From positions 11,312 through 75,311 of the forward strand of contig VGRX01000001.1 of assembly GCA_016875215.1 (NCBI GenBank): a stretch of 64,000 nt of DNA, read 5' to 3'. Below are positions 24,901 to 40,700 of this stretch, one piece after another (the first letter of the stretch is position 1; each line of letters starts with the position of its first letter). The stretch is from Deltaproteobacteria bacterium (GTDB lineage Bacteria; Myxococcota_A; UBA9042; CAIXZC01). The notes under the pieces were generated by a model. The model saw nothing but the letters and a program-made list of their open reading frames with translations. It was not told the DNA's origin and did not search any database. A program made the position numbers and the translations under genes.

Positions 24901-25542
24901 GCACAGCGTGGAAAGACCCAGTGCGATCGACTTCGTCGAGCACGAGCAGACCCCGCTGTCGGACACGCACTGCTTCAGCACCGTGCCTTCCGCAGTCACG
25001 GCATCCTTGCACGAGAAACCGAAGGGGCATGCGCCGTTGCACGGCGCCCCGCAGAACAGCCCTGCCGCACCATAGTCCACGCATACGTCCTCCAGGCCGT
25101 TGGGGGACTTGCAGTCCGCACTCGTCTTGCACGGCCGGCACAGGTGGGTGTACGGCGACACGCATGCGAACTGCAGATCCGGTCCGCCCGTCGAGATCTG
25201 CTGGCAGGTCCACCCTTGCGGACACTCCTCGACGCAGGTATCGGAGCACACGTTGTCCCCCATGTGCTCCACGCAGATGCCGGACAGGCAGTCCTTGCCG
25301 TCCGCGCACGGTTCCAGGAAGCACCCCGTTCCGGGCACGCATCCGGAACCCGTGTCGAGCCATTCCTCGACCGTCACGTCCGGGGGCTCGACCGAGGTCT
25401 CCGCCTGGTCGACGCCCACCGTCTCCACCACGGACTCAGCCTGCGCCTGGTCACTCGTGTCCTCCCCGCCGGTCACTACGGTGCCGCCGCCGGCACAGGA
25501 CGCCACAACTCCGCTCACCGCCAGAATCCACAGTCGCCTCAT
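21994..25542 (-). CDS. giant secreted Cys-rich repeat protein A (1182 aa): EGF-like N-terminal module, about 25 CxDGNxCTxDxCDPxxGC repeats, CCGNG Cys-rich repeat, unique about 230 aa C-terminal domain
   Basis: Signal peptide MRRLWILAVSGVVASCAGG. Highly regular about 38 aa repeats. Paralogue of 37748-41590. Confidence 0.8.
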   Translation of the reverse strand: MRRLWILAVSGVVASCAGGGTVVTGGEDTSDQAQAESVVETVGVDQAETSVEPPDVTVEEWLDTGSGCVPGTGCFLEPCADGKDCLSGICVEHMGDNVCSDTCVEECPQGWTCQQISTGGPDLQFACVSPYTHLCRPCKTSADCKSPNGLEDVCVDYGAAGLFCGAPCNGACPFGFSCKDAVTAEGTVLKQCVSDSGVCSCSTKSIALGLSTLCLAANDLGQCQGERTCGPDGLSACDAPEPQAEECNGVDDDCNDKVDDVSCDDGNGCTKDECDPEAGCVHEPLSGTSCDDGDVCTLADHCESGECLGTGINCNDSNVCTTDECDPTGGCKYSFNKADCDDGDPCTVSDVCSQGKCGGYPVACDCKTTADCLVLEDGDVCNGKLVCDTKQLPHKCIVDLKTVVECAAPKGVGAECLAPSCNPLTGECSFVPAAEGKACSDGSACTHSETCADGTCAGGKPVNCNDGNPCTDDSCDAATGCKFAPNTAACEDGNPCTVGDQCGGGSCASGKAQDCNDGNPCTDDSCEPLKGCVHQPNQLPCSDSNECTTGDQCKLGACVATGVQSCNDGNVCTDDSCEPVLGCKFVFNQVPCNDGNKCSTGDACKSGLCQGSSLLPCDDGNVCTDDSCDPDLGCVHNHNAASCDDGNVCTKSDLCKGGACKGSVALECGDSNVCTDDSCDPAKGCIHLENTAPCNDGNPCTGPDACVAGQCKGGPALGCDDGNPCTTDACDPKGGCTHTPNTAACDDGNKCTPTDTCSAGKCVGTGTLPCGDDTPCTDDSCDPAKGCIHTLNSAPCDDGDICTVGDKCTAGGCKPAQWLSCDDANSCTTDACDPKAGCTHTPVAGGCDDKNACTTGDTCQDGTCVGTAWVSCDDSNVCTTDTCEPKTGCKHANNTVPCNDGNACTVTDACGDGKCTGSGNLACNDGNGCTDDSCDPKTGCAYAPNTAACNDGSACTAGDVCGGGACKPGPAVTCIDGDKCTTDSCDPATGCKYTPFTPCCGNGKVEAGEACDDGNAVAGDGCEPNCTLTTPTVPGFSGELGPVFGGAWIQCEGYLDKPGGDDIPKAWGNDCTGAAYNKIRIVCGANTNSYRYLDVNKNVFRDGLGAYQVNGLIYNSNFSGWINEIYADGNHPHTSSSWWGGPWGCGESSTNVTVNNSCGWEASNCFAQNIGGNRYLWLYVAP

Positions 25543-25713
25543 AGTCCGAACCTCCGACTTGGAAGATCAGTAACGGGGCCTATGTTACCACGGTCCCGGT
25601 GCGGACGGAAATGGCGGCAGCGCATGAGGCCGTCCCGTGTCCGGCGCGCTTGCAAAACCGACGCCCCGAATGCAGGATCTTCCCTCGGCGTCGTGTGTCG
25701 AGGTGCAGCAGCA

Positions 25714-27573
25714 ATGGCGAGTCCGGACCCGAAGAAACCCACTGTTCAGGCCTTCCGCCCCGAGGTTCTCGCCCCCGGCGGCAGCCTGGACGCGATCGAG
25801 GCTGCAGTCAACGCCGGGGCCGATGCCGTCTACGTCGGCGTGGGCTTGCTCAACGCCAGGACCCGCGCCGCCAACCTCACGGTCGAACAGCTTCCCGGCG
25901 TGGTGGATCTGGCCCATTCCCGAGGTGCCGCAATTCACGTGGCACTCAATGTCCCGGTAACTCCGACGACCCTGCCCGAGGCCGTCCGCGTCCTGGCGGC
26001 CTCCTGGCTGTCCGGCGCGGATGCGGTCATTCTTCGCGACCCGATCCTGATCGGGCTGGCTGCCCGGGAGCTGCCCGGTCTGGCCCTTCATGCGAGCACG
26101 CAGATGGGGATCCTGGGGCCCGCAGCCGCGAAACGGGCACATGGTCTGGGCTGCACCCGGGTGATCCTGCCCCGAGAGCTGTCGGCCGCGGACATCCGCC
26201 GCATCCGCAAGGCCGTGCCCGACCTGGAGCTGGAGGCCTTCTTCTTCGGCGCTCTGTGCTTCGGGGTATCGGGGCGTTGCCTGCTCGGCGAGGCGGTTGC
26301 CGGCCGCTCCGGAAACCACGGGAGCTGCGCTCAACCGTGTCGCCTGGAGTACTTCGCTGCAGACGGTGCTCCGCTCGGCCGGATCTTCAGCATGCGGGAC
26401 CTCGACCTGTTTCCCCGTATCCGGGAGTTGGTCGATGCCGGCGTGTCCAGCCTCAAGATCGAAGGGAGATTGAAGTCCCCGGCATGGGTTGCGTGTGTGA
26501 CCTCTTACGCGCGCACGGCCTCCCGGAACTGGCGGACGGGCGGCCTGGCTCCGGACGAGCTGGCGGCCTTCCACCGGGACGTGGCGGTCCTGTTCTGCCG
26601 GCCCCGCACCTCCGCGTTCTTCGACGGTTCCACCGACGTTGCGCTGCTCACCTGTCCGGCAAGCTCGGGCCAGGCCGGGCTGGCGATCGAACGCTTCGAT
26701 ACCATGCCCCGACCGCGCAGCCCGACCGAGCGGGCCGGCCGCGTTCTCGGTGAATCGGTCGAGCGCACACGGGAGCGCTGGCAGCGAACCGGAGCCTCCG
26801 GGGCTCTTCCGGGGATCGCGCTCCGCTTCGTCACTCCTGTCGACCTGGCGCTGCGTGACGGCCTGCTCGTCACGACCGCGCTGTCGGGTCCGGGGCAATC
26901 CGAGGCGCTTCCGATCGTCGAGTTGGCGGACGAGAATGGACGGCCGGCAGGCCGGATCCCCGCCGGCAGGGTGGCGGTGGTCACCCTGCCGCTCGACAGG
27001 CCGCCTCTGACCGTCGCCATCCACAGCGCCAACTCCGTCGAGGCCCGCTTCCCGAAGGGGAATCTCCGCCTGTCCCAGGCCAGCCGCAACGGTGAGCTGC
27101 CCGCCCCGAGCGTCACCCGCGTCGTGATGGCCCAAGACCGCATCTTCCTGACCGGGGCGATCGGCCGCTTCCGTACCTCGGCTGAGCTGCCCGTTGCCAC
27201 CGAGCCGGCCCGCAACCAGGGGATGACGCCCGGGATGATGCAGCGCTACTTTCCGGAGGCCGAAGCCGACGTGGCTCCCGATCTGTACGCCAATCCCACG
27301 GAGCTCAAGGCCGTGCGGCGCGCCTTTGCCGCGCAGGGCAGGGAATCCTATCGTGCGGAGCTCGAACGGCTGGCCCGTCGTCTCCTCGATGATGTCCTTC
27401 AAAGCGAGCCCGTATTCGCGCAGGACGATGCCTCGCTGCTCGCCCGAGGTCCGGCCTGCGTATCCCGGGTGACCGGCCTGCCCCCGGGCGAGGTCCGCAC
27501 CTCGGGAGGGGACCGGTTCGTGGTCGAGCCGACCCGCAGGGGCACGGTCGTGCGGGCCGTGCGCCGCCCCTGA
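25714..27573 (+). CDS. peptidase U32 family protein
   Basis: U32 signature EAFFFGALCFGVSGRCLLG and downstream GSCAQPCR. About 619 aa. Confidence 0.8.
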   Translation: MASPDPKKPTVQAFRPEVLAPGGSLDAIEAAVNAGADAVYVGVGLLNARTRAANLTVEQLPGVVDLAHSRGAAIHVALNVPVTPTTLPEAVRVLAASWLSGADAVILRDPILIGLAARELPGLALHASTQMGILGPAAAKRAHGLGCTRVILPRELSAADIRRIRKAVPDLELEAFFFGALCFGVSGRCLLGEAVAGRSGNHGSCAQPCRLEYFAADGAPLGRIFSMRDLDLFPRIRELVDAGVSSLKIEGRLKSPAWVACVTSYARTASRNWRTGGLAPDELAAFHRDVAVLFCRPRTSAFFDGSTDVALLTCPASSGQAGLAIERFDTMPRPRSPTERAGRVLGESVERTRERWQRTGASGALPGIALRFVTPVDLALRDGLLVTTALSGPGQSEALPIVELADENGRPAGRIPAGRVAVVTLPLDRPPLTVAIHSANSVEARFPKGNLRLSQASRNGELPAPSVTRVVMAQDRIFLTGAIGRFRTSAELPVATEPARNQGMTPGMMQRYFPEAEADVAPDLYANPTELKAVRRAFAAQGRESYRAELERLARRLLDDVLQSEPVFAQDDASLLARGPACVSRVTGLPPGEVRTSGGDRFVVEPTRRGTVVRAVRRP

Positions 27574-27780
27574 TCTGCAGAGGATCCGCTGCGGGTCGCG
27601 GTTCCGCAGAACTGACGGTGGATTTGGGGGGCCCCGCGCATTTGACACGCGCCCCGTCCCGTGCTTGACTCAGGGGGAGGGAAGTTCGGTCCGGTCGGGG
27701 GCCCCGCAATGCCCGCCGGAGAAGCCGTGAGCTTCGCTCGACGGGTGGTCGTGGTCAGACTCGTCAGAGGGGGGTGGTTC

Positions 27781-28692
27781 ATGTCCAAGTCCGCTCCGGC
27801 AGCTTCGCCGCTCCAGGGAATGTCGAGGCTTGCGATTGCAGCATTCGGCGTCGTGCTGCTCCTGTGCGTGGCACTGACGATCGCTGTCGTGAAGCTGAGG
27901 GGGAAGTGCGGGGAGTTGGAGCACAGCCACAACGAGCTGACGGCCTGTCGCGACCGGAATGCCAGGCTGGACGACCAGTGCGCAGCGACCGGGCGTGACC
28001 TGGAGGAGACCCGCAAGACGCTGGCTGCCAAGGGGGCCGACCTGGCCGCAACGTCCCAGCGTCTCGCCGATTGCACGAGGCGGCTGGCGGAGGCTCAGGA
28101 TGGTCTTCTGGGGGCCGCTCGACTTCGCGAGGAGCTGGAAGGCCGGAAGTCCGAGCTCGAGAAGGAAATCGACCGGCTGCGAAGCGGCAGCGTCCTTCTG
28201 GAGGCGGAGAACCGCTCCCTCGATAAGCAGTGGAAGACGGCCTTTGCCCAGCTCGACGGGTACGCGGGCTCTCTGGCGAAGCATCCGGGCATCCTCGAGC
28301 AGCTCCCGTTGGGGCTTGCGGTTCGTCCGAGGGCCATCGCCATGCCGCTCGGAAAAGGCAAGGGGTTCCACTTCAAGCTGTGGGTCGAGATCTCGGTGGC
28401 CCGCCAGGCCGATGTGAAGCGGGTCGTCTACCTCCTCAACCACCCGACCATCGTCGAGTCCCGGCGGCTGGAATCCTCGGATCCCACGAACAGCTTCGAG
28501 GTCCAGTACTACGGCCCCCAGGCAGCGGACCGGGTGCTCGTCATGGTGCAGGATGCTCGGGGAGGCCGGCACAGGCTGGCTCTCGACATGCATGCGGATC
28601 TCACGAAGCCCCAGGTGGATTTCGATACCGGCGCCGAGCCTGTACCGCCCGAGAAGGTCCCCCTCATCGACAAGCCCCGGCTCGAGCCATAG
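27781..28692 (+). CDS. membrane-anchored coiled-coil protein, hypothetical
   Basis: N-terminal TM (LAIAAFGVVLLLCVALTIAVV), about 150 aa heptad-rich region, globular C-terminal domain. Confidence 0.5.
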   Translation: MSKSAPAASPLQGMSRLAIAAFGVVLLLCVALTIAVVKLRGKCGELEHSHNELTACRDRNARLDDQCAATGRDLEETRKTLAAKGADLAATSQRLADCTRRLAEAQDGLLGAARLREELEGRKSELEKEIDRLRSGSVLLEAENRSLDKQWKTAFAQLDGYAGSLAKHPGILEQLPLGLAVRPRAIAMPLGKGKGFHFKLWVEISVARQADVKRVVYLLNHPTIVESRRLESSDPTNSFEVQYYGPQAADRVLVMVQDARGGRHRLALDMHADLTKPQVDFDTGAEPVPPEKVPLIDKPRLEP

Positions 28693-28821
28693 GAGGCTGC
28701 CCGGAATTACTTCGCCGATAGCATCCCCGTCCGCTCCGGGTCCTCGGCCCTTTCTTGCCTCGCGGGCGCGCAGAATCTATAATGAGCACGGTCAGGCAAG
28801 CCACGCCTGCAGCAGAGGTGA

Positions 28822-30360
28822 ATGTCGATGAAAGCCGTTGTCTGGACTGCGTGGGTCATGGTCGTGCTGGCAGCGTGCTCGTTCTCCGTGAAGAAACCGG
28901 CTTTCCCGGGTGAGGACGTTGCCGACTCGGCCACCGCCGACGGGGATGGGAGCGAGGACCAGGCGGCTGAAGACCAGACCGGCGATGTTGGAACCCTGCC
29001 GGATGGCTCGGACGACGCTCGACACGATGCCCGCGCCGACGCGGTAGACGATGCCCGCGGCGACGCGATAGACGATGCCGGCAAGGACCTGGCGCCGATC
29101 GACGTGACCCGACCCGAGTGTCAGAACCATTCGGACTGCGACGACCTCGATGACTGCACCGCGGACAAGTGCGCCGCCGGGAAGTGCTTCCACGAGGAGT
29201 TCCCGGGGTGCGGGGAGTGCATCCCCGAGGGGAAGGAGTTCGAGGACCCCAACCCGGATGGCAAGTGCTGCCCTCCCTCCTTACCAATCCCGGTGAAGCA
29301 GGAGATGGGGGTCCCCTGCGCGGACCCGTTCTGCTGGCCCAACTACGACTGTGCGGAAGTCGATTGCCAGTGCTTCGTCTGCGCCCAGTGCGGCGACGGC
29401 AAGTGCAGCACGGGGGAGAACCGGTGCAACTGCCCCGAGGACTGCGAGAAGCCGTTCCCCTGCTCGGAGGCAGGAGGCAACTGCACGCCCGAACCCTTCT
29501 GTCCGGACGGCATGCTGGGCATCTCCCCGTCCGACTGCGGCGTCGACTTGTACTGCTGTCCTCCCGGCGGCGGGTGCGCCAAGGCGGGCGAGCCCCAGGG
29601 GGTGGGGCCCGAGATGATCCCCTGTTGCGACGGGCTCGCTCCGATCTCCTGGGCGGACTGGAATCCCGAGGACGGCTGCGTGGCCATTCCCGGTGACGAC
29701 ATCTGCTCCGACTGCGGCAACACCGTTTGCGACCCATGGGAGAATCCCTGCAACTGCAAGCAGGACTGCCCCGAGATCGGCCAGGAGACCTGCTCCAAGA
29801 ACGGACCCTTCTGCGCTTTCGGCGCTTACTGCCAATCCGAGCCGGGCAAGTGCGTCGATGCCACGGCTCCCGGCGCCTGCGTTCCCGTTCCGGAACAGTG
29901 CCCGCTCCTCTACTCGCCCGTCTGCGGTTGCGACGGGAAGAGCTACGGAAACGAATGTGAGATGGCCAAGGCTTCGATGTCCATGGCCTACAAGGGGGAG
30001 TGCAAGGTCGAGTGCGTCGAGGAAGGAGAGACCTTCGTGGACTTCGACCCGGCGGGCAAGTGCTGTGGCGGCCTTCCTGCCATCGAAGCGTGCAAGCCCT
30101 CAGAGGACAACAAGTCCTGCGTGTGCGACAAGGTGGCGACGCACGTCTGCGTCCATTGCGGAAACAAGATGTGCGGTCTCGGCGAGAGCTGGTGCAACTG
30201 CCCCGGGGACTGCCCCGTCCCTGCCGGCGTAACGTGCCTCACCGCCAAGGGGCAGTGCGTCCCCAAGGACCCTTTCCCCCAGTGCTTGCCCGGCTACTTC
30301 CCCCTTCCGCTGCCGGGATGCAACCTTCCGTTCCCGGCCGCCTGCTGCATTCCCAAGTAG
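28822..30360 (+). CDS. secreted Cys-rich lipoprotein with Kazal-type domain and DDAR-repeat linker
   Basis: Signal/lipobox VVLAACSFS. Kazal consensus CPLLYSPVCGCDGKSYGNECEMAKASMSMAYKGEC. Numerous EGF-like Cys spacings. True start may be ATG 28828. Confidence 0.65.
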   Translation: MSMKAVVWTAWVMVVLAACSFSVKKPAFPGEDVADSATADGDGSEDQAAEDQTGDVGTLPDGSDDARHDARADAVDDARGDAIDDAGKDLAPIDVTRPECQNHSDCDDLDDCTADKCAAGKCFHEEFPGCGECIPEGKEFEDPNPDGKCCPPSLPIPVKQEMGVPCADPFCWPNYDCAEVDCQCFVCAQCGDGKCSTGENRCNCPEDCEKPFPCSEAGGNCTPEPFCPDGMLGISPSDCGVDLYCCPPGGGCAKAGEPQGVGPEMIPCCDGLAPISWADWNPEDGCVAIPGDDICSDCGNTVCDPWENPCNCKQDCPEIGQETCSKNGPFCAFGAYCQSEPGKCVDATAPGACVPVPEQCPLLYSPVCGCDGKSYGNECEMAKASMSMAYKGECKVECVEEGETFVDFDPAGKCCGGLPAIEACKPSEDNKSCVCDKVATHVCVHCGNKMCGLGESWCNCPGDCPVPAGVTCLTAKGQCVPKDPFPQCLPGYFPLPLPGCNLPFPAACCIPK

Positions 30361-30370
30361 GAGGGGACGC

Positions 30371-31609
30371 ATGACTTCGCCGGTCGAGGGAGCACACCGC
30401 CCCAGCCACATGGTCCGCATCTTCCAGACGTCGACAGAGGCTGAGCGCGAGGAGGTCTTCTCGTTCCGATATCGCGTCTACGCCCTGGAGCTGCGCAAGG
30501 GGCTGTCCGGAATCGACCACGCACGCAAACGGTACGTGGATGAGCTGGACGACTGCGGCGTCCTGCTCTATGCGCGCGACATGGTCTCGGGCCAGGTCGT
30601 GGGAACGGTCCGCCGCAACGACCTGAGCAGCGGACGGCTTCCGGACAAGCTCGCTGCCCGGTTGCGCCTCGGGCCCATGATCGAGGCCTTCGGCGAAGAG
30701 CGGGTCAGCTACTCCAGCGCGTTCATGGTCGACCCGACCTTCCGGGGGAAGACGGTCGCCTCCCTCCTCGCAATGGGTTCTTACAGAGACGGCATTTGCA
30801 GGGGAATCGCCCTGGACGTCTGCATCGCGGAGCTGGGGCTCGTGCACCTGTACCACCAGCTCGGCTACCGGACCTACGAAGCCCCGTTCCGCACGTACGC
30901 GGGAGGTGGGTTGCGCGTCCCGCTCGTCCTCGCCCCCTTCGATCAGGCCTGGCTCGAGAAGGTCGAAAGCCCGTTCCGGCACCTGCTGCCTTCCGACAAG
31001 GGGGACGGCGGGGCCACGGCGGTTGCGCTCCGGGGCATCTACCCCGAGTGGCAGGACCCGGCCGTCACGCCGCTGGAGAGCCGGGCACTCTGGGCCGCCC
31101 TTGCCCACCAGGAGCCCGACGGCGCAGCGCAAACCATCTTCGACGGCTTCTCGCAGGACCAGATCCAGGACATTGTCGGCAGTGTGCCCACCGTGAGTCT
31201 CTCCCGGGGAAAACGCCTGTACCGGGGCGGCGAGCACGAGGCCGGCATGGCCTACGTCATGTCCGGGCGGCTCGGGCTCGCTCTCGAGGATTCCAACGAC
31301 CCGCACTTCGTAACGGTGCTGGGTCCGGGCCAGCTCCTCGGCGAGATGTCCGTCCTGACCGGCGGCGACCGCACCTCCACCCTCGTCGCGCTCGAGAAGA
31401 CCGAAGTGCTGCTGCTCCCCGCAAACCTCCTCGACCGGTTGGAAAAGAAGGACCTCCCCAGCGCCTACCGCATGTCGCGGAATCTGTGCTACATGCTGGC
31501 CCAGCGCCTCCACTCCATGAACATCCGGGTGCTCGGGCTCTACGACCGCGTGAAGGTCTCCAACGATGCCTTCGAGCTGACCCGGGAGAACATCCCGGAC
31601 GTCGACTGA
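30371..31609 (+). CDS. fusion protein: N-terminal LuxI/N-acyl-amino-acid-synthase-like GNAT-fold acyltransferase plus C-terminal cyclic-nucleotide-binding (cNMP) domain
   Basis: TAGGAGGGG SD. N-terminal EEVFSFRYRVYALEL...GVLLYAR resembles the autoinducer-synthase/NAS conserved block. C-terminal GQLLGEMSVLTGGDRTSTLVALEKTEVLLL is a cNMP-binding beta-roll. Confidence 0.5.
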   Translation: MTSPVEGAHRPSHMVRIFQTSTEAEREEVFSFRYRVYALELRKGLSGIDHARKRYVDELDDCGVLLYARDMVSGQVVGTVRRNDLSSGRLPDKLAARLRLGPMIEAFGEERVSYSSAFMVDPTFRGKTVASLLAMGSYRDGICRGIALDVCIAELGLVHLYHQLGYRTYEAPFRTYAGGGLRVPLVLAPFDQAWLEKVESPFRHLLPSDKGDGGATAVALRGIYPEWQDPAVTPLESRALWAALAHQEPDGAAQTIFDGFSQDQIQDIVGSVPTVSLSRGKRLYRGGEHEAGMAYVMSGRLGLALEDSNDPHFVTVLGPGQLLGEMSVLTGGDRTSTLVALEKTEVLLLPANLLDRLEKKDLPSAYRMSRNLCYMLAQRLHSMNIRVLGLYDRVKVSNDAFELTRENIPDVD

Positions 31610-31613
31610 CGCG

Positions 31614-34238
31614 GTGGCCATGCCCATCCCGCTCCCCCTCGATTCCGCCCGCGAGGAGATCCTTGCTGCCCTGGCCGTCAACGGCAGCCTCGTGCTCTCC
31701 GCACCGACCGGGTCGGGCAAGTCCACCCGCATCCCCCCGATGCTGCTGGGCGAGGCACGGGGGAAGGTCCTCGTCCTCGAGCCCCGCCGCCTCGCCACCC
31801 GCCTCGTTGCCGCCCGGGTTGCCCAGGAGATGGGCTGCCCCCTGGGCGGGCCGGTCGGCTACCAGACGCGTCACGAGGGCCGGGTCGGACCGGATACGCG
31901 GCTTCTCTACCTGACCCAGGGGCTGTTCCTTCGGATGCTGTTGGACGACCCGCGGCTGGACAAGGTGTCCGCCCTGGTCCTGGACGAGTTTCACGAACGC
32001 CACCTGGATGGCGACATCGCACTGGCCATGGCGCTGCGCCTGCGCCGGACGACCCGCCCCGACCTTGCCGTGGTGGTCATGTCGGCAACGCTCGACACGG
32101 AGACGCTGTCGGACTACCTCGACTGTCCCGTCGTCAAGACCCGGGGACGGGCATTCCCGGTGGAGGTGCGGCACATCGACGCAGCGGAAGACCGCCCCCC
32201 ATGGGAGGCCGCGGCCAGGGCCGTGCGGGAGATCGTGCGGGCAGGAGAAAGCGGAGACATCCTCGTGTTCATGCCCGGCGGCTACGAAATCCGCAGGACG
32301 GTCGAGGCCGTGCGGGACCTGCATCTGCCCGAGCCCCTGACCGCGTTCCCCCTCCACGGCGAGATGCCCGCTGAAGAGCAGGACAGGGCACTGGCTCCCG
32401 CCACGAACCGGAAGGTCATCGTGGCCACCAACGTGGCCGAGACGTCGATCACGATACCCGGCGTACGGCACGTCGTCGATTCCGGGCTGGCCCGAGTGGC
32501 GCGCTTCGATCCTCGCCGGGGAATCAACATGCTGACCGTGCAGAAGATCAGCCGCGCCTCGGCCGAGCAGCGGGCCGGCCGAGCGGGCCGGACCGAACCG
32601 GGCACCTGCCGCCGGCTCTGGTCGCTCTACGATCACCAGGGGCGGTCGGAGCACGAGACGCCCGAGATCGGCCGGGTCGACCTCTCTCAGGCACTACTCC
32701 TGCTGAACGCACTGGGCGTGAACGATATCGGAACGTTTTCCTGGCTCATTCCACCTCCGGATGCGGCGGTCCGATCTGCCCGGGATCTGCTGGCCTCACT
32801 CGGGGCCACGGCCCCCGATGGCGATCCCGCCGATCTGGACCACCGGTTCCCGCCTCCCTCGGGCAATCTCACCGAGCTGGGGCGGCAAATGGCCCGTGTC
32901 CCCGCGCACCCGCGACTCGCCCGCCTGGTCCTCGAAGGGGAGCGCCGCGGCTGCCGTGACGACGCGGCCCTGGTTGCCGCACTGCTGTCGGAAAGGACCA
33001 TTCTGCGGCCGGGACCCAGGAACCCCCTGGCGGCCGCATCCGACGACCTCTCCGATCTCCTCGCCCGCTTCAGCCAGGCCCGGGAACACGGATTCGACGA
33101 TGCCTTCTGCCAAGGCCGCAGCCTCTCCGCATCGGCCGCACGCCAGGTCGACCGGACCTGGCGCCAGCTTCGACAGACCGGGCAGGCCCGGCACCATCGC
33201 ACGGCCCGCGCCTGCACCCACGGTTCGGCCGATGCAGGACGGCCCGCTGGCTCTGCCTCGAATCGAGGGTTGTCTCCCCCGTTTCGGTCCAGTCTCTCCC
33301 CGGACCCCGAACCCCGGACCCTGCCTCTCTGCCTCCTTACCGCGTTCCCCGACCACGTGGCTGCCCGCTCCAGGCCGGGAAGCCCCGTCTTCAATCTGAC
33401 CGGCGGCCGTCGGGCAACGCTGAGCCGTGAGACGCTCTGCACGGATTGCGACCTGGTCCTGGCGTGCGAGATCGCGGAGATCGAGGGAGGCTCGGGCCTG
33501 TCCACCGTCCTGTCTCTGCTCGTCCCGTTGAAGCCGGATGACCTGCTCGAGATGTTCTGCAACCGGATGGGCCTGTCCTCGGAGCTGTCCTGGAACCGTG
33601 AGACCCAGGTCGTCGAGCAGATCGAGTCGACCCGGTTTTTCGACCTCGCCATCGAGGAGACCCGGGGCATTCCAACCGACCGCACCGCCGCTGCCGCTCT
33701 GCTTGCCCGGCGCATCGTGGCGGAAGGGCTCCATCTCTCCGGCTTCGACGACCGGGTCGAGGCCTGGGTCGAGCGGCTCCGCTTCGTCGCAACGACGTTT
33801 CCGGAGAAGGGGCTGCCGGTCTTCGACGACGCGGACCGCCAGCGGGCCATCGAGGCTCTGTGCGGAGAGGACTACCGGTATGCGAAGGTCAAGGATCGTC
33901 CTGCGCTGGAGGCCGTGCGCTCGCTGCTGTCTCCGGCCCACCGTCGTTTTGTCGACGAGATGGCCCCGGAGCGCATCCAGCTTCCCCGCGGCCACCGCAT
34001 ACGTGTCTCGTACCCGCAGGGGCAGCGCCCGACCGGGAGGGCCCGCATCCAGGATCTGTACGACCTTCCTTCGACTCCCCGGATCGCGGGTGGGCGGGTG
34101 CCGCTCCTGCTGGAAATCGCCGGCCCCAACAACCGCCCGCTCCAGGTGACCGACGACCTTGCCAACTTCTGGAAGGTGCTCTACCCCCAGCTCAGGGCCC
34201 AGCTCCAGCGTCGCTACCCGAGACACGAGTGGAGGTGA
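31614..34238 (+). CDS. hrpB: ATP-dependent RNA helicase HrpB (DEAH-box)
   Basis: Walker A APTGSGKST, DEFHERH, MSATLD, QRAGRAGR, and HrpB-type C-terminal domain. 874 aa. Confidence 0.85.
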   Translation: MAMPIPLPLDSAREEILAALAVNGSLVLSAPTGSGKSTRIPPMLLGEARGKVLVLEPRRLATRLVAARVAQEMGCPLGGPVGYQTRHEGRVGPDTRLLYLTQGLFLRMLLDDPRLDKVSALVLDEFHERHLDGDIALAMALRLRRTTRPDLAVVVMSATLDTETLSDYLDCPVVKTRGRAFPVEVRHIDAAEDRPPWEAAARAVREIVRAGESGDILVFMPGGYEIRRTVEAVRDLHLPEPLTAFPLHGEMPAEEQDRALAPATNRKVIVATNVAETSITIPGVRHVVDSGLARVARFDPRRGINMLTVQKISRASAEQRAGRAGRTEPGTCRRLWSLYDHQGRSEHETPEIGRVDLSQALLLLNALGVNDIGTFSWLIPPPDAAVRSARDLLASLGATAPDGDPADLDHRFPPPSGNLTELGRQMARVPAHPRLARLVLEGERRGCRDDAALVAALLSERTILRPGPRNPLAAASDDLSDLLARFSQAREHGFDDAFCQGRSLSASAARQVDRTWRQLRQTGQARHHRTARACTHGSADAGRPAGSASNRGLSPPFRSSLSPDPEPRTLPLCLLTAFPDHVAARSRPGSPVFNLTGGRRATLSRETLCTDCDLVLACEIAEIEGGSGLSTVLSLLVPLKPDDLLEMFCNRMGLSSELSWNRETQVVEQIESTRFFDLAIEETRGIPTDRTAAAALLARRIVAEGLHLSGFDDRVEAWVERLRFVATTFPEKGLPVFDDADRQRAIEALCGEDYRYAKVKDRPALEAVRSLLSPAHRRFVDEMAPERIQLPRGHRIRVSYPQGQRPTGRARIQDLYDLPSTPRIAGGRVPLLLEIAGPNNRPLQVTDDLANFWKVLYPQLRAQLQRRYPRHEWR

Positions 34239-34241
34239 CTC

Positions 34242-36515
34242 ATGCTACGCAATGCAGCGATCCCGGTGTGCATCCTTGCTCTCTCGGCCTGTTCCGGCAA
34301 ATCGGACCTGCCCGATTCCGAAACCGTGGGGGCTGACTCGGCAATGACCGACGCTACCGCGGATCTCACCCTGCCGGACCTCGTTCCGGAAGAGACGGCA
34401 GCCGACCGCGCCTCGGACCCCATCGATCCGCCGGACAGGGCCGTCCCTCCGCTGCCCTCCACGGTCGGCGAGGATCTGGACCTGCAGATTCCTCGCACGC
34501 TCGAATCCTCGTACGTGCTTCCCGACGAGTGGTACGGGGCGCTGGAGTCCATGGGGCTTGCGCTCGACAAGCTCTTCATGCCGGACATCGGGCTCACCGC
34601 CGACTGGGACTTCAGCCGCCTGCACTGGACGGACACGATCCGTCACCAGGGGCAGCTCGCACCCACGTTCGCCTACATGGTCATCGAGGATGTGAATGAT
34701 GCCTTCGATGCCGACGACGTCACCCTGGCCCGCGAGCTGCTCGTCGCCCAGAACACCTACAACACCCGGGATTCCTTCGTGGTGAGCCGCTTCGACAAGG
34801 CGGTGACGCTCCTTTCCGAAGACGGTGTCCTGATGGAGGCGCTGCACCAGTTCTGCATCCGGCCCGGGGTCGCCGGCGAGTGGTCGGGGCCGACGTGCGG
34901 GGAGCAGGAGGCGGACGTCGCCGCTGCAGCGGCCCTCGTGCCGCTGGAGCAGCAGGTCGCCCTCGCCCAGGCGATCTACGGCCTGCTGGCCGCGGTAGAG
35001 CTGCGCCAGGAGGCCCTGCTGGCCAAGGGGAAGATGACCATGGACGACTGGGCCGTGCAGCACTCCAAGATCGTGAACGGCGGCACACCATACGACTCAT
35101 CGGTGCTCGACGGGGCTCATCCGGGCTTCGACTTCGAGCAGATGTCACGGGCGGCGCAGCTCGCGGTGCGATCCGTGGAAAGCCTCCGAGCCGCCCTCAC
35201 CGGCACCGACCCTGTCCCCGGCGCTTCGTTCGAGCTTGTCGGCCCGCTCGGTCGCATCGCAGTGGACCTGACCGACCAGGACAACACGTGGAAGCACGCC
35301 GACGGGTTCCTCCTCGTGGATGGCCACGGCAATGATGCGTACTACGGCCGCGTCGCGGCGAACGCAAGCATCGCCCAGCCCGTCTCCGTGGTCCTGGACC
35401 TGGAGGGGAACGACGTCTATGCACCGACCAAGAAGTGGGAGTTGAAGCAGGACTACCTGGTGGGTGCCCGGCTTCCCATGCAGGGGGCCGGGCTGTTCGG
35501 AGTCGCCATCCTGTCCGATGCGGCCGGTGACGACGACTACGGCTGCCTGACTGCGTGCCAGGGCTACGGGATCTTCGGCGTCGGCGTTCTGCTCGACCAC
35601 GGCGGGACCGACCAGTACAGGGGCTACGACTTCGCTCAGGGAGCTTCGGAGTTCGGGTACGGGCTGCTGGTCGATCGGGGACAGGGGAACGACAGCTACG
35701 AGACGCTCCAGCACAGCCAGGGCTACGGCGGCCCACGTGGGATCGGATGGCTCGTGGACGAGGGGGGGGACGACCAGTACGTCGCCATCGCGGAGCCGAT
35801 CATCTTCGACTGGGCCGGAGAAGGGACCAACTTCTCCGGCTCGCAGGGATTCGCCTTCGGGTTCCGGGGGGGGCCCTACTGGTCCGGCGGCCTCGGAGCG
35901 CTATTCGACCTGGCTGGAAACGATACCTATCAGTGCGCGGTCATGTGCCTCGGCTTCGGCTACTTCTTCGGCACCGGGCTCTTCTTCGACCAGGCCGGAA
36001 ACGACACCTACGTCAACACGCACAAGTACACCCTCGGCTCCGCCACCCACCAGTCCGTCGGGCTCTTCGTCGATGGCGAGGGGAAGGACTCCTACGCCCT
36101 CATCGGAGACGATGAAGCCATCGGGCTCGGCTACGACCACGGCGTCGCCTACCACCTCGACCGAGGGGATCAGGATGACACCTACACGGTCGAGAACATC
36201 GGCGATTTCACCCTCGGATTCGCTCGTCACCCCGCGATCGGAACCCTCATCAACGAGGGGGGAAACGACCACTACGACATCGCCGGCACCGGCGAGGTCA
36301 CCTGCGGCCGGAGCTGGGTCGACCCGGACGACCGCAAAGGCGCCCTCGCCAAGATCATCACACTGGCCGTCTTCCTCGACCTGGGCGGTACCGGCGACAT
36401 CTACGACATCCCCCGCGACGAGGTCGGCAACGGGAAGAGCTGGCACCAGACCGCACCGCTCGGCGGCGGTTGGACCTCTGACCTCGACTTCGCCTGGGGA
36501 CAGGACAGCCAGTAG
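34242..36515 (+). CDS. lipoprotein with about 12 G(N/D/T)DxY beta-helix-like repeats, hypothetical
   Basis: Lipobox ILALSACSGKS; GGAGGTGA SD; start overlaps the hrpB stop. Periodic GNDVY/GDDDY/GTDQY/GNDSY/GDDQY/GNDTY motifs. Confidence 0.6.
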   Translation: MLRNAAIPVCILALSACSGKSDLPDSETVGADSAMTDATADLTLPDLVPEETAADRASDPIDPPDRAVPPLPSTVGEDLDLQIPRTLESSYVLPDEWYGALESMGLALDKLFMPDIGLTADWDFSRLHWTDTIRHQGQLAPTFAYMVIEDVNDAFDADDVTLARELLVAQNTYNTRDSFVVSRFDKAVTLLSEDGVLMEALHQFCIRPGVAGEWSGPTCGEQEADVAAAAALVPLEQQVALAQAIYGLLAAVELRQEALLAKGKMTMDDWAVQHSKIVNGGTPYDSSVLDGAHPGFDFEQMSRAAQLAVRSVESLRAALTGTDPVPGASFELVGPLGRIAVDLTDQDNTWKHADGFLLVDGHGNDAYYGRVAANASIAQPVSVVLDLEGNDVYAPTKKWELKQDYLVGARLPMQGAGLFGVAILSDAAGDDDYGCLTACQGYGIFGVGVLLDHGGTDQYRGYDFAQGASEFGYGLLVDRGQGNDSYETLQHSQGYGGPRGIGWLVDEGGDDQYVAIAEPIIFDWAGEGTNFSGSQGFAFGFRGGPYWSGGLGALFDLAGNDTYQCAVMCLGFGYFFGTGLFFDQAGNDTYVNTHKYTLGSATHQSVGLFVDGEGKDSYALIGDDEAIGLGYDHGVAYHLDRGDQDDTYTVENIGDFTLGFARHPAIGTLINEGGNDHYDIAGTGEVTCGRSWVDPDDRKGALAKIITLAVFLDLGGTGDIYDIPRDEVGNGKSWHQTAPLGGGWTSDLDFAWGQDSQ

Positions 36516-36575
36516 GGGTGGTGCCGCGGTTCGGGGCGAAGCCCACCGGCCGTCATGTCTTGGCCGAAAAGTGGG

Positions 36576-36657
36576 GGCGGTGCGCCCGCGGCGTGATGGG
36601 TCCAGGCTCAGCCTGGCGGTGCGCCTGCGGCGTGATGGGTCCAGGCTCAGCCTGGGT
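36576..36657 (+). terminator. tandem duplicated about 40 bp near-palindromic hairpin between convergent genes (putative bidirectional terminator)
   Basis: gcgccYgcggcgtgatgggtccaggctcagcctgg occurs twice; ccaggctcagcctgg is a dyad. Confidence 0.4.
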
Positions 36658-37555
36658 TCTTCCGCTTCCGCCTCCAGCGGGCGAGACGCAGCAGGCCGTA
36701 GCCGAGCCCGCCGAGGACCAGCAGCCACGGAAGCGCGGCCAGCGCGAGGATGCTGCCCACCTTGATCGCATCCCCCAGTGCCTTCAGCGAGTCCATGAAC
36801 TTGTCGCCGAGCTCCTGGAAGTACGTCCGCTCGACCGGCGGCACGAAGTCGGCCTGAACCGAGATGGTAAGCGTCAGCGTGGAGAATGCTACGCGGTCCT
36901 GGAGCACCTTGAACTGAGCGGTCAGCGTCTCGATCTGCTCGCGGACCCTGGCCAGCTCCCGCTCCACCTCCACGATGTCCTTCAGCTCCCTGGCGCTGGT
37001 CTCCAGGTGACCCAGGAGACGCTGCTCCACCTTCTTCTGGTTGGACAGGCGGGCATCGAGATCGACGTACTCGAAGGTCACGTCCTCGATGTTCATGGAC
37101 TCATTGGTGTAGCTGCCGATGGTCTTGACTTCGCCGACGAATTCATCGAAGCGGTCGGCAGGGATCTTGAGGGTGTACGTCATCTGCCGGACCTCGCTGG
37201 GAGCCAGGTACCGGGCGTGGGGGATCCAGGCTTCGGCCTGCTTGCCCGCGACGTAGCCGTCGTACTTCGTCACCAGCTCGGCAAGCTTCTCCTGCGCCTT
37301 GCCCGCCTCTCCCACGATGAGCGTCAGCGCTCCGGTCTTGACCAGGATGCGCCCCTGGACGGCCGGCCGGGACGGCTCCGCTGCTTCGGCCATCCTCCCG
37401 GCAGAGATCTGTTTGGCCTCGTCGCCGAAGCTGGCTCCCTGCTTGGTCGGCAGCTCCATCGGCCCCCTGCCCTGCTCCAGTTTGGCGCACCCGGCTGCCA
37501 CGAGCAGCGCCGCTGCCACAGCCATCCTCGAAACGAACCGGAGAGTCCCGTTCAT
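36647..37555 (-). CDS. DUF4349-like lipoprotein with C-terminal TM anchor
   Basis: Signal/lipobox AALLVAAGCAK; coiled-coil middle; C-terminal hydrophobic helix and RRKRK tail. Confidence 0.5.
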   Translation of the reverse strand: MNGTLRFVSRMAVAAALLVAAGCAKLEQGRGPMELPTKQGASFGDEAKQISAGRMAEAAEPSRPAVQGRILVKTGALTLIVGEAGKAQEKLAELVTKYDGYVAGKQAEAWIPHARYLAPSEVRQMTYTLKIPADRFDEFVGEVKTIGSYTNESMNIEDVTFEYVDLDARLSNQKKVEQRLLGHLETSARELKDIVEVERELARVREQIETLTAQFKVLQDRVAFSTLTLTISVQADFVPPVERTYFQELGDKFMDSLKALGDAIKVGSILALAALPWLLVLGGLGYGLLRLARWRRKRKNPG

Positions 37556-37747
37556 CTGCCACCTCGCTGTTGGGGCTCGGCATCCCGCCGAACGCAGGTC
37601 GGTCACCGGCCCATCCTACCACCAGTACGGGCCCTGCGAAAGCGTCCCGCCACACCGTCGTGCACCCCCCGCGGATCGTCGGTGCTTTCGGGCAGGGACG
37701 ATCCGTGCTACCATCTGCGGCGGTGGATTCGAATGGGAAGGTCAACG

Positions 37748-40700
37748 ATGAACCGAAAGTGCCTGATGGGATTGGCGGGGCTCCTGGTAGCGTGCTCCGG
37801 CGGAGGGCAGACGCTGCAACCGGACGTACGGGACGTTGCGGACGTGCGCCAGGAGGAGGCCGCAGTGGAGACCGCGACGCCCGCGGAAGTCGACGTGGCG
37901 CCGGTGGATGTGCCTCCGGATCCCGGGGTTCCTGAGACCATCGAGGAGACGACCCCGGCGTGCCAGCCGGGAAGCGGGTGCTTCCTCGACCCGTGTGCCG
38001 ACAGCGGTGATTGCGTGATGGGGCCGTGTGTGGAGCACCTTGGCGGCAAGGTCTGCTCCCAGACCTGCATCGAGGAATGCCCCGGAGGCTGGACGTGCAA
38101 GCAGCTTGCCGGCGAGGGCCGCGACCTGGTATTCGCCTGCGTCTCGCCGTTCACGCACCTGTGCCGTCCCTGCGCGTCCGGGGCCGACTGCAAGTCCGAG
38201 ACCGGCGTCGAGGACGTCTGCGTGATCTACGGCGATGAGGGCAGCTTCTGCGGTGCGGATTGCCAGGATATCCCCTGTCCGCCGGGGTACTCGTGCGTGG
38301 ATTCGGTGACCACCGAGGGGTTCGCCAGCAAGCAGTGCAAGGCGGACGTCGGCCTGTGCGGCTGCTCGGAGCTTTCCCGCAAGCTTGGGCTGTCCACGCC
38401 CTGCGTGGTGACCAACGCGCACGGGACGTGCAAGGGGCAGCGCACGTGCACCGGCCAGGGGCTGTCCCCGTGCAGCGCGCCGGCTCCGGCTCTCGAAGTC
38501 TGCAACGGCCTCGACGATGATTGCGACGGTACGATCGACGGAGAGATCTGCGACGACGGCGATGCATGCACCAAGGACTCCTGCGTGGCCGAGACGGGCT
38601 GTCAGCACGAGCCGCTCACCGGGACCTCCTGCGACGACGGCGACGTCTGCACGCTGGCCGATCACTGCGACGACGGGACGTGCACCGGGTCGGGAATCGA
38701 CTGCGACGACGGCAATCTCTGCACCAGCGACTCGTGCGACCCGACCGGGGGATGCGTGTACACCTTCAACAATACCGCCTGCGACGACTCCGACCCGTGC
38801 ACCGTGGGCGATTCCTGCAAGGAGGGAAGCTGTCAGGGTACCTCCGTCCCCTGTGACTGCCAGGACGACTCGGATTGTGCCAAGCTCGAGGACGGCAACC
38901 TGTGCAACGGGACCCTCTTCTGCGACGTCGAAGGCTTCCCCCAGAAGTGTGCGGTGAAGCCCACGAGCATCATCGAGTGCCCCGCCCCCTCGGGCATCGA
39001 TGCCCCCTGCCTGGTGCCGCTCTGCGACCCGTTCAACGGCCAGTGCTCGTTCGCCGCGGCCAACGACGGGAAGTCGTGCGACGACGGCAAGATCTGCACC
39101 ACCGGGAGCCATTGCGTCGCGGGTACCTGCGCGGGTGGAATCCCCCTCAACTGCGAGGACGGCAACCTCTGCACCGACGACTCGTGCGACCCGGTCGAAG
39201 GGTGCATCCACCTTCCGAACTCGCTCCCGTGCGAAGACGGCAATCCCTGCACCATGAAGGACACGTGCGAAGATGCTGCCTGCTCGCCCGGCCAGCCGGC
39301 CAACTGCAACGACGGCAACCCGTGCACCGATGATTCGTGCGACCCGACCTCGGGGTGCATCCACCAGGCCAACGCGGCACCGTGCGACGACGGGAACGTG
39401 TGCACCACCGGAGACAAGTGCCAGAACAAGGGATGCAAGGGAATCGGCATTCTCCCGTGCAGTGACGGCAACCTCTGCACCGACGACTCGTGCGACCCGA
39501 CTGCGGGCTGCCAGCATGCCAACAACAGCCTGCCTTGCAGCGACGGCAACCCCTGCACTCCCAAGGATGTCTGCATGGACGGCGCCTGCGTCGGCATGGG
39601 AGTCAAGGACTGCGGCGACGGCAACCCCTGCACCGACGATGCCTGCCACCCCACGCAGGGATGCCTCCACCAACCCAACACCGCTGCCTGCAACGACAAC
39701 AACCTCTGCACCACGAGCGACGTGTGCGCCAACGGTGCCTGCACCGGGACGGGCCTTCTCGCGTGCAGCGACTCGAACCACTGCACTGACGATTCCTGCA
39801 ACCCCGCCAAGGGGTGCATCTACACCCCGAACAAGACCTCGTGCGATGACGGCAACGAGTGCACCCTGGGAGATGTCTGCAAGGGCGGCCAGTGCTCGGC
39901 CGGGACCATGAAGGACTGCGAGGACGGCAACCCCTGCACCAAGGACTCCTGCGTGCCGCTCACCGGGTGCATGCACGTTCCAGGAGCCGGGCTCTGCGAT
40001 GACGGCAATCCCTGCACCATCGCAGACAAGTGCGCGGCAGGTACCTGCCAGCCCGGCGCTCCGAAGATCTGCGACGACGGTAACTTCTGCACCGACGACT
40101 CCTGCGGCAAGGAGGGAATCTGCCAGTTCGTGCCCAACAAGGTCGCCTGCAACGACGCCAACTCCTGCACCAACGACGATCTGTGCGCAGATGGGAAATG
40201 CGCCGGAACCCCCATCGACTGCGACGACGGCAATCCGTGCACCAAGGACTCCTGCGCTCCCGCCACCGGCTGCGTGTACACCTTCAGCACCGCACCGTGC
40301 GACGACGGCAACCTGTGCACGACCAAGGATGTCTGCGACAAAGGGGCCTGCACGGGCTCCGTCGCCCTGCCGTGCGACGACGCAAATCCCTGCACCGACG
40401 ACTCCTGCGATCCCAAGGTCGGCTGCCTGCATAAGCCCAACCAGGCTCAGTGCGACGACGCAAACGCCTGCACGCTGACCGACCAGTGCAGCGCAGGATG
40501 GTGCCAGGGCCTGCCGCTCGGCTGCGACGACGACGACCCCTGCACGACCGACTCGTGCAACCCCGCCACCGGCTGCGTCCACACCACCAACACCGCCCCC
40601 TGCGACGACGGGAACCTCTGCACCGTGAACGACACCTGCCAGGAAGGCATGTGCGTGGGCGGGAAGAACGTCTCGTGCAACGATTCCAACGATTGCACCG

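Follow-up and report, generated by a model that had tools for sequence, protein, structure and literature searches.

A putative cyclic-nucleotide-switched N-acyl-amide synthase of a broad bacterial protein family in a lineage-specific four-gene cluster

Our analysis of a 64-kb stretch of DNA (hereafter the window) suggests that the second gene of a tight four-gene cluster on balance probably encodes a cyclic-nucleotide-switched N-acyl-amide synthase, which belongs to a broad protein family and has acquired its packing with three neighbouring genes in one lineage. The initial annotation had read this 412-aa protein as a LuxI/NAS-like acyltransferase fused to a cNMP-binding domain, and the fusion holds, with both Acetyltransf_5 and cNMP_binding matching above their cutoffs. 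The domain content it had assigned to all four genes likewise agrees with Pfam and NCBIfam, with PDB matches and with a beta-helix model. The coordinates of the cluster and its surroundings are listed in Table 1.

Table 1 Features of the four-gene cluster and its borders (positions in the window).
Feature	Position	Strand	Description
Terminator-like hairpin	28738-28750	+	just 5' of gene 1, followed by the promoter match
Sigma-70-like promoter match	28755-28783	+	TTGCCT-17-TATAAT; just 5' of gene 1
Gene 1	28822..30360	+	Cys-rich lipoprotein, 512 aa; lipobox LAAC; 65 Cys
Gene 2	30371..31609	+	FeeM/NAS-type GNAT + cNMP-binding domain, 412 aa; Pfam, structure, alignments
Gene 2, GNAT N-acyltransferase domain	30410..30940	+	residues ~14-190; Acetyltransf_5/FeeM/LuxI branch
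Gene 2, conserved helical linker	30941..31135	+	residues ~191-255 (D191, S200, P201, W241); family-specific
Gene 2, cyclic-nucleotide-binding domain	31136..31555	+	residues ~256-395; beta-roll then long C-helix
Gene 3	31614..34238	+	DEAH-box helicase HrpB, 874 aa; TIGR01970; DEAD, Helicase_C and HrpB_C domains
Gene 4	34242..36515	+	lipoprotein, 757 aa; lipobox LSAC
DUF4349 gene	36647-37606	-	convergent, downstream of gene 4

The N-terminal half of the gene 2 protein is a GNAT domain of the branch that comprises FeeM, N-acyl-amino-acid synthases, OlsB and LuxI. Acetyltransf_5 (PF13444), one of the two profiles proposed for this half by the initial annotation, is covered over its entire length by residues 32-133 and scores 28.5 bits against a cutoff of 22.4; the other, Autoind_synth, found no match at E <= 10 in gene 2 and none among 81 relatives. 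The protein also gave no match to Pfam FeeM (PF21926), even at E <= 10. This model is matched by 67 of the 81 family representatives in a Pfam scan (best E = 1.5e-16) and stands among the precomputed Pfam domains of the sister proteins P0012, P0013 and P0015, the match of the last being marked as weak. In structural comparison, the fold is nearest to FeeM and LuxI rather than to generic acetyltransferases, and the top matches are small-molecule acyl-amide synthases. Conserved positions of the domain are R33, Y34, R35, Y37, D57, D60, R81, the MVDPxxRGxTxAS loop, E154 and Y161.

Could gene 2 then be a divergent LuxI-type synthase, which turns SAM into an acyl-homoserine lactone or a related signal under cNMP control? 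Compared with LuxI-type enzymes (TofI, LasI, RpaI, MesI), gene 2 retains the N-terminal residues R, Y(F), D, D and R, but the conserved Trp of the TofI LGW motif is replaced by K43, a Lys that is invariant. Together with the missing Autoind_synth match, the FeeM matches of the relatives and the fact that the SAM domain fused in some of them is an ordinary class I methyltransferase, this makes the LuxI-type reading highly improbable. OlsB and GlsB, the aminolipid N-acyltransferases, share the Acetyltransf_5 clan with gene 2, and two relatives (P0030, P0049) show a weak N-terminal match to the OlsB equivalog, scoring 20 against a cutoff of 350. No OlsA/GlsA-like O-acyltransferase partner was seen in the family neighbourhoods surveyed. 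OlsB, GlsB, LuxI and NAS are grouped together in a review (PMC11631085).

The GNAT domain is followed by a linker that is helical in the AF2 model and has columns nearly invariant across sets of 149 and 81 representatives. Behind it lies a cyclic-nucleotide-binding domain of the CRP/PKA type whose phosphate-binding cassette is intact: residues 275-357 match cNMP_binding (PF00027) with 53.5 bits (cutoff 27.5, E = 2.4e-14), and the cassette reads G324-E325-M...R334-T335-S, its stretch GEMSVLTGGDRTST aligning with GELSIFDPGPRTSS of the CRP-family regulator 4cyd and with related chains. Many CRP/FNR-type domains bind ligands other than a cyclic nucleotide. The domain of gene 2 might in the same manner have ceased to bind cyclic nucleotides and serve as a dimerisation module or as a sensor of another ligand, as in CooA and CprK. 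Such a loss would fit this general precedent, the pLDDT below 50 at residues 329-334 inside the cassette and the lack of a nucleotide cyclase in the window. We nevertheless regard it as very unlikely, given that the Gly-Glu and Arg-Thr/Ser pairs of the cassette are conserved in close homologues (G324, E325 and R334 are invariant among the 15 nearest), that at least 90% of 81 distant family members still have G324 and that cyclase genes directly adjoin family members in two independent lineages.

With a threshold of E <= 1e-3, an exhaustive profile search placed gene 2 in a family of 2,244 clusters (50% identity), 1,297 of which reach E <= 1e-10. Architectures were called on representatives with our own HMMs, complemented by a Pfam scan of the 81-member subset; among the best 148 of the 2,244 clusters, GNAT-cNMP is the dominant form (75 clusters), next to 45 with the GNAT only and 27 with GNAT-cNMP-methyltransferase. 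The closest sister proteins of gene 2 carry the additional C-terminal class I SAM methyltransferase, and the window lineage has lost it. The 68 genome loci collected are spread over Myxococcota, Alpha-, Beta- and Gammaproteobacteria, Planctomycetota, Cyanobacteria, Acidobacteriota, Gemmatimonadota, Bacteroidota and one Firmicute. Databases name the family only generically, and a look-up of the clusters for names from cultured organisms returned just metagenomic singletons, generic names or none. The architecture had been called undescribed, and a search of the literature on NAS, FeeM or GNAT combined with cNMP indeed found no paper describing the fusion, the lipocone and NAME papers having no bearing on it; what did not stand is the impression of an oddity of this locus, as the family counts more than 1,000 clusters at 50% identity from many phyla. 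It is large, phylogenetically broad and experimentally uncharacterised, and seems never to have been studied.

Neighbours that recur across the family give hints on its role. A methyltransferase is fused or adjacent to family members in several lineages, and cassettes of methyltransferase, GNAT and GAF-cyclase occur at L017, L021, L028, L029 and L034, with a cyclase also adjacent at L051. A gene for a haem-oxygenase-like iron enzyme abuts the GNAT gene at L039, L041, L044, L046, L050, L051 and L074, and a cNMP-patatin is adjacent at six loci from several phyla (L036, L047, L049, L068, L076, L077). Since methyltransferase, haem-oxygenase-like enzyme, cNMP-patatin and GAF-cyclase are the partners that recur, the gene neighbourhoods suggest that the family makes a small acylated molecule or lipid under cNMP control. 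Within the 64 kb of the window, our search found no methyltransferase, no second family member, no nucleotide cyclase and no cNMP-patatin, and the haem-oxygenase-like enzyme and other pathway partners are absent as well.

For the natural function of gene 2 we thus have to weigh small-molecule against protein substrates. The weak score against the generic Acetyltransf_1 profile (18.0 bits, under the cutoff of 20.7), the missing FeeM match and the classic GNAT R-G-x-x-x-A loop mean that a protein or another acetyl-CoA-dependent substrate is conceivable. A precedent is the mycobacterial protein lysine acetyltransferase Pat (Rv0998 / MSMEG_5458), which is regulated by cAMP and, like gene 2, carries its cNMP domain and its GNAT on a single polypeptide. 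The cNMP domains of the two proteins are detectably similar, that of gene 2 matching the Pat chains 4oll and 4onu. The second half of the gene 2 GNAT (residues 101-173) furthermore matches the acetyltransferases Naa30 and PA4794, and its R-G-K-T-V-A loop is similar to the motif that binds the pyrophosphate of CoA. Ser/Thr kinases, which adjoin 16 of 71 loci, could also be counted in favour of a protein substrate; we rejected them as functional partners because Myxococcota are very rich in such kinases and those found here all cluster as one family. In Pat, however, the cNMP domain is N-terminal, so that the domain order is reversed, the GNAT is of the Acetyltransf_1 type and the substrates are proteins; against the NCBIfam Pat equivalog, gene 2 reaches only 27.7 bits (cutoff 460) in an alignment confined to the cNMP part. 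Pfam places gene 2 and its relatives with Acetyltransf_5 and FeeM, the best structural matches act on small molecules, and methyltransferase, haem-oxygenase-like oxidase, patatin and SDR are partners typical of small-molecule or lipid pathways. We therefore think it unlikely that gene 2 is a cNMP-regulated, Pat-like acyl- or acetyltransferase that uses acetyl- or acyl-CoA to modify lysines or N-termini of proteins.

According to our preferred reading, that of an N-acyl-amide synthase, the gene 2 product would be a soluble two-domain enzyme. With acyl-ACP or acyl-CoA as donor, its GNAT would attach a fatty acyl chain to the amino group of a small amine such as an amino acid, yielding an N-acyl amide (a lipoamino acid or a signal). 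The acyltransferase would be switched allosterically when the C-terminal domain binds cAMP or cGMP, by analogy with mycobacterial Pat, the precedent for such control by cAMP. To our knowledge, Pat is essentially the only acyltransferase for which control by cyclic nucleotides has been characterised, and the NAS enzymes known to us are single-domain proteins without a fused sensor domain. Compared with NAS and FeeM, the gene 2 family adds the conserved linker, the cNMP-binding domain and often a methyltransferase; identity between FeeM and the gene 2 protein, which misses the FeeM model, is only 11%. The cNMP-binding patatin phospholipases (NTE-like) are another case of a lipid enzyme fused to cNMP-binding domains, with a catalytic domain different from that of gene 2. 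More tentatively, the GNAT-cNMP family as a whole may represent a widespread and unrecognised route from cAMP or cGMP to an N-acyl amide signal or lipid, often tailored by the methyltransferase or the haem-oxygenase-like oxidase, and the window protein would then belong to the members that lack a methyltransferase. A role of its product at the cell surface is conceivable, as gene 2 is probably co-transcribed with genes for two surface lipoproteins.

The setting of gene 2 in the window is compact. ORF coordinates agree with the initial annotation on a tight cluster of four genes in tandem on the + strand (28822-36515), and its first two gaps of 10 and 4 nt were correct; the overlap it had given for the third junction is instead a gap of 3 nt between genes 3 and 4, where GGAGGTGA covers the HrpB stop codon. 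Ribosome-binding sites are present at two junctions, among the motifs a GGAGGGG located 6 nt 5' of the gene 2 ATG. The promoter match upstream of gene 1 is the sole sigma-70-like match in 27400-38000 (10.6 kb), and since 0.6 such matches are expected by chance, it provides positional support only. The transcription unit probably starts at this hairpin/promoter site, and the four genes are probably co-transcribed in the window lineage.

The products of the other three genes are of quite different kinds. Gene 1, which may in fact start at ATG 28828, encodes an acidic repeat linker, three CxxCG[DN]..C..E[NS]..NC..DC modules and one Kazal-like module. The latter (residues ~352-397) is matched by Kazal inhibitors of the PDB in phmmer at E values between 3e-5 and 1e-3; the core is PVCG.DG.(S/T)YGNEC, and the usual Cys 2-3 residues after the Cys of NEC is lacking; against Pfam, the protein gave no match, and no Kazal domain even at E <= 10. 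Gene 3, with GTG 31614 or ATG 31620 as start codon, is a bona fide, ordinary HrpB equivalog (TIGR01970: 609.4 bits, cutoff 546.15; HrpB_C: E = 1.9e-33). In the gene 4 product, a disordered linker is followed by a helical domain (~95-320) and then by a beta-solenoid (~329-757) that has 12 G-x-D-x-Y turns, a fold predicted by a confident model and in line with the earlier description as a beta-helix-like lipoprotein. A peroxiredoxin match at its residues 89-197 (E = 1.7e-4) was dismissed because this region is mostly helical in the confident AF2 model.

Do the four genes form one signalling or secretion-linked system, in which the acyl product modifies the lipoproteins or is exported with them and HrpB serves the same pathway? 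Short gaps, ribosome-binding sites, the promoter-like site upstream and the convergent gene downstream would fit such a system, as would the whole four-gene arrangement kept in a 78%-identical relative. At ~50% identity, L009 still keeps the Cys-lipoprotein, the GNAT-cNMP(-MT) gene and HrpB, with HrpB overlapping the GNAT gene. The survey of neighbourhoods, for which we clustered the ORFs of draft metagenome-assembled genomes ourselves and built a simple NJ tree, argues against it. HrpB adjoins the GNAT gene only in the window, L010, L009, L011 and L006; these loci all fall in a single subclade, and shared descent therefore explains the adjacency. Even there, HrpB is missing from L008, which groups with these loci, and in L006 an opposite-strand gene separates GNAT and HrpB. 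In the 78%-identical relative, HrpB and gene 4 are 170-370 nt apart. Homologues of gene 1 lie upstream of the GNAT gene in L001/L010 and L009 (38% identity over 273 aa in the L009 copy), the latter being the only further lineage that shares the Cys-rich lipoprotein gene beyond close relatives. At about 45 other family loci, neither HrpB nor a homologue of the Cys-lipoprotein or of gene 4 lies within 10 kb, gene 4 homologues of 47-56% identity reside in unrelated contexts, and HrpB itself is an ordinary equivalog. Two candidates for displaced members of the cluster proved not to be homologous, namely the opposite-strand 504-aa gene of L006 as an inverted Cys-lipoprotein and a 454-aa gene downstream of HrpB in L009 as a counterpart of gene 4.

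A single system of four genes is thus quite improbable. The initial annotation had proposed the four as a candidate for an undescribed system and gene-neighbourhood conservation as a check; the neighbourhood turned out to be largely unconserved, with only the Cys-lipoprotein, beside the HrpB subclade, reaching as far as L009. Judged from gene order, the packing with HrpB and two surface lipoproteins appears to be lineage-specific and not a conserved functional system. A functional link specific to this lineage may still exist, given the tight gaps, the ribosome-binding sites and the trio of Cys-lipoprotein, GNAT and HrpB genes partly conserved in L009.

For the window, the noteworthy unit is one gene, gene 2, and not the four-gene cluster. 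Its family of more than 1,000 clusters wires an enzyme of the acyl-amide-synthase type directly to a cNMP sensor. The fusion and its recurrent neighbours, a cyclase, a methyltransferase, an iron oxidase and a cNMP-patatin, provide a concrete and testable way of connecting second-messenger signalling with the production of acylated small molecules or lipids.

Pfam searches located both domains that the initial annotation had read into the 412-aa product of gene 2: a GNAT acyltransferase domain (Acetyltransf_5, residues 32-133, 28.5 bits against a cutoff of 22.4) and a cNMP-binding domain (residues 275-357, E = 2.4e-14). The GNAT domain had further been described as LuxI/NAS-like, and we found that it is indeed not a generic one, since a profile of the family matches TofI, an AHL synthase, across residues 17-82, the N-terminus gives a weak NCBIfam match to TIGR03694 (exosortase-associated N-acyl amino acid synthase family), and 67 of 81 relatives of two-domain size match FeeM (Pfam, best E = 1.5e-16) and 63 Acetyltransf_5; cNMP_binding is found in 75. 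The LuxI/NAS-type N-terminal block (R33, Y34, R35, Y37, D57, D60, R81) is conserved, as are an MVDPxxRGxTxAS loop, E154 and Y161. The protein itself did not reach the Pfam FeeM model, so that family context, and not its own score, places it in the Acetyltransf_5/FeeM branch. No Pfam match to Autoind_synth was found in it, and an invariant lysine occupies the position aligned to the LuxI-family tryptophan. With these observations, we regard a SAM-using LuxI-like synthase as the most improbable of the alternatives.

Regulators of the CRP family, 4cyd among them, align with the cNMP-binding domain, the phosphate-binding cassette GEMSVLTGGDRTST corresponding to GELSIFDPGPRTSS in 4cyd, and G324, E325 and R334 are invariant across the 15 closest homologues. 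Given this conserved cassette, a sensor domain that has ceased to bind cyclic nucleotides appears very unlikely. In CRP, the C-helix mediates dimerisation; the predicted model of the gene 2 protein contains a long C-helix (residues 362-394), which by analogy may serve the same purpose.

How common is this combination? A word-indexed search returned only 16 relatives, four of them two-domain proteins with 78-100% identity and 11 (44-52% identity) carrying an extra C-terminal class I SAM methyltransferase (MT). An exhaustive HMMER search employing a profile of GNAT and linker yielded 2,244 clusters at 50% identity (E <= 1e-3; 1,297 at E <= 1e-10). Inspection of architectures covered the best 150 of these clusters, and among the best 148 we found 75 GNAT-cNMP (~365-400 aa), 27 GNAT-cNMP-MT and 45 GNAT-only clusters, many of the latter being short fragments. 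In GTDB species genomes, scanning located 68 family loci, distributed over Myxococcota, Alpha-, Beta- and Gammaproteobacteria, Planctomycetota, Cyanobacteria, Acidobacteriota, Gemmatimonadota, Bacteroidota and a single Firmicute. In their source records the proteins bear generic names ('cyclic nucleotide-binding domain-containing protein', 'GNAT family N-acetyltransferase', 'predicted GNAT family N-acyltransferase'), and a full-text literature search found no paper on the fusion of a cNMP domain with a GNAT of the NAS/FeeM type. Thus, the architecture is common in sequence space, generically annotated and, as far as the literature found goes, apparently uncharacterised. The initial annotation did not recognise it as a described architecture; it is neither rare nor unannotated.

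Among known systems, Pat is closest in its working, as a single polypeptide in which cAMP gates the GNAT, but domain order, GNAT branch and equivalog score, i.e. all Pat membership tests, place the gene 2 protein outside it. FeeM/NAS, OlsB and LuxI are grouped together in a review (PMC11631085). The catalytic domain of the gene 2 protein groups with them, while sensor fusion and a conserved linker set its family apart from their characterised members.

To survey recurrent partners, ORFs flanking 71 loci (L numbers denote genome loci with family members) were clustered and recurrent clusters annotated. A SAM methyltransferase is fused to GNAT-cNMP in one large clade and is encoded by a neighbouring gene on the same strand in Synechococcus L035, the Myxococcota MAG L043, the planctomycete L042 and the group L017, L021, L028, L029 and L034. 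In that group, a GAF-adenylate/guanylate cyclase follows directly downstream, forming a same-strand cassette of MT, family GNAT and GAF-cyclase (e.g. L028, 794-4940); all but L034 carry a second, fused GNAT-cNMP-MT gene in the same locus. In the alphaproteobacterium L051, a cyclase lies upstream of the GNAT gene. A gene for a haem-oxygenase-like iron enzyme (Haem_oxygenas_2) abuts GNAT(-cNMP) on the same strand in the Alphaproteobacteria L039, L041, L044 and L051, and likewise in L050 (Bacteroidota), L074 (Nevskia, Gammaproteobacteria) and L046 (Planctomycetes), each match lying at ~10 kb in the locus; the two genes form a cassette that is conserved between phyla and lacking in the window. An NTE-like cNMP-patatin phospholipase (~750 aa, two cNMP-binding domains plus a patatin domain; e.g. 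L036, 11092-13347) adjoins GNAT(-cNMP) in L036, L047, L049 (Burkholderiales), L068 (Myxococcales), L076 (Vicinamibacteria) and L077 (unclassified MAG). These partners fit a cNMP-controlled small-molecule or lipid pathway better than protein acetylation, and a Pat-like protein acyltransferase, for all its similarity in gating, is unlikely. The 64-kb window itself lacks a methyltransferase, a cyclase, a patatin and a second family member. As the gene 2 protein is nested among MT-bearing proteins in a neighbour-joining (NJ) tree, it has presumably lost the MT domain. A Ser/Thr kinase gene lies beside GNAT-cNMP(-MT) in 16 of the 71 loci (L004, L008, L013-L016, L018, L022, L025 and others), often convergent and immediately downstream, in genomes with a high background of such kinases.

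The gene cluster consists of four tightly packed same-strand genes, as initially annotated, with gaps of 10, 4 and 3 nt by ORF coordinates; the overlap reported between genes 3 and 4 is the 3-nt gap, and GGAGGTGA spans the HrpB stop codon.

Features of the gene cluster and its flanks
Feature	Position	Strand	Description
U32 peptidase ORF, then pYEATS-like gene	24697-28692	+	upstream of cluster
Terminator-like hairpin	28738-28750		upstream of gene 1
Sigma-70-like match	28755-28783		TTGCCT-17-TATAAT, 3' of hairpin, upstream of gene 1
Gene 1	28822-30360	+	ORF, 512 aa, Cys-rich lipoprotein
Tandem repeat	29013-29079		24 bp, 2.8 copies, within gene 1
Gene 2	30371-31609	+	ORF, 412 aa, GNAT-cNMP
Gene 3	31614-34238	+	ORF, 874 aa, HrpB
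Gene 4	34242-36515	+	ORF, 757 aa, lipoprotein
39-bp repeat	36576-36655		2.1 copies, 97% identity, between gene 4 and DUF4349 gene
DUF4349 gene	36647-37606	-	next gene downstream, convergent with gene 4
Dicty_CTDC lipoprotein	37727-41590	+	~1,287 aa

GGAGGGG lies 6 nt 5' of the gene 2 ATG. The sigma-70-like match is the only one within 10.6 kb, yet provides positional support only, since 0.6 are expected by chance. It is plausible that the four genes form a single transcription unit. A mechanical ORF (36518-41590) was rejected as fifth operon gene because the convergent DUF4349 gene and then the Dicty_CTDC lipoprotein follow gene 4. Each copy of the 39-bp repeat contains the palindrome CCAGGCTCAGCCTGG, and the 24-mer has no further occurrence in the window, where chance would give 0; the repeat may act as a bidirectional terminator or represent a REP-like element that was duplicated. 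The downstream lipoprotein has 14 Dictyostelium-type Cys-rich repeats (E = 1.5e-83). Proteins of this type, accompanied by a Peptidase_M15_4 gene, are found again close to the GNAT gene in L001, L006 and the contig of family protein P0005, and look like a marker of the window's lineage. Upstream, the U32 peptidase gene and the next one, which encodes a coiled-coil protein of 343 aa weakly matching prokaryotic YEATS, are both syntenic in a relative with 78% identity; the former probably has an internal true start, as the gene called in the relative encodes 589 aa compared to 958 aa listed mechanically.

Lipoproteins were assigned throughout by the lipobox rule alone. The gene 1 product (lipobox LAAC) contains 65 cysteines in 512 residues, three CxxCG[DN]..C..E[NS]..NC..DC modules and a Kazal-like module (residues ~352-397) matching solved Kazal inhibitors (E = 3e-5), with no Pfam match even at E <= 10. 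The tandem repeat encodes an acidic DAR(H/A)DA-type linker behind the signal peptide. In the 78% relative the product has 685 aa, 173 aa more, with an extra Cys-rich block, indicating that gene 1 evolves by module gain and loss. Gene 3 encodes, judged by sequence, an ordinary HrpB, which scores 609 bits with TIGR01970 (cutoff 546) and has the domains DEAD, Helicase_C and HrpB_C. It exceeds the 825-position model in length, and a Pro/Ser/Arg/Ala-rich low-complexity insertion (HHRTARACTHGSADAGRPAGSASNRGLSPPFRSSLSPDPEPRT, residues ~520-585) separates helicase core and C-terminal domain.

Neighbourhoods were compared in draft metagenome-assembled genomes by stop-to-stop ORFs and BLAST clustering. 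In the 78% relative (L001-L003, L010), the whole region is syntenic, with 170-370 nt between HrpB and gene 4. At ~50% identity, L009 and the P0005 contig have a Cys-rich gene upstream (L009: product 38% identical to that of gene 1 over 273 aa; P0005 contig: 517 aa) and an overlapping HrpB gene downstream; L011 retains HrpB, in L006 one opposite-strand gene separates it, and L008 and L004 have none. A simple NJ tree of the GNAT-cNMP region places every HrpB-adjacent locus in one subclade, in which L008 also groups, and ~45 other family loci lack all three neighbours within 10 kb. Gene 4 belongs to a family of >150 homologues, three of which (47-56% identity, long contigs) lie in unrelated contexts with neither HrpB nor GNAT nearby. 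The four-gene arrangement is thus inherited synteny within one lineage. Conservation of the neighbourhood, whose absence the initial annotation had named as refuting its reading, is largely lacking, and the undescribed four-gene system does not hold as framed; a genuine lineage-specific system, with which tight packing and synteny among close relatives would agree, is quite unlikely.

What could the gene 2 protein do? We consider it fairly probable that it is a cNMP-gated small-amine N-acyltransferase with methyltransferase tailoring in sister proteins, and that the four genes are no dedicated system. The GNAT domain would acylate an amino acid or similar amine, with acyl-ACP or acyl-CoA as donor of the fatty acyl group, cAMP or cGMP binding to the C-terminal domain would gate this activity, and the fused methyltransferase of sister proteins would modify the product. 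Component domains and regulatory principle are known; their combination is widespread yet apparently unstudied, and the family would reward experimental work.
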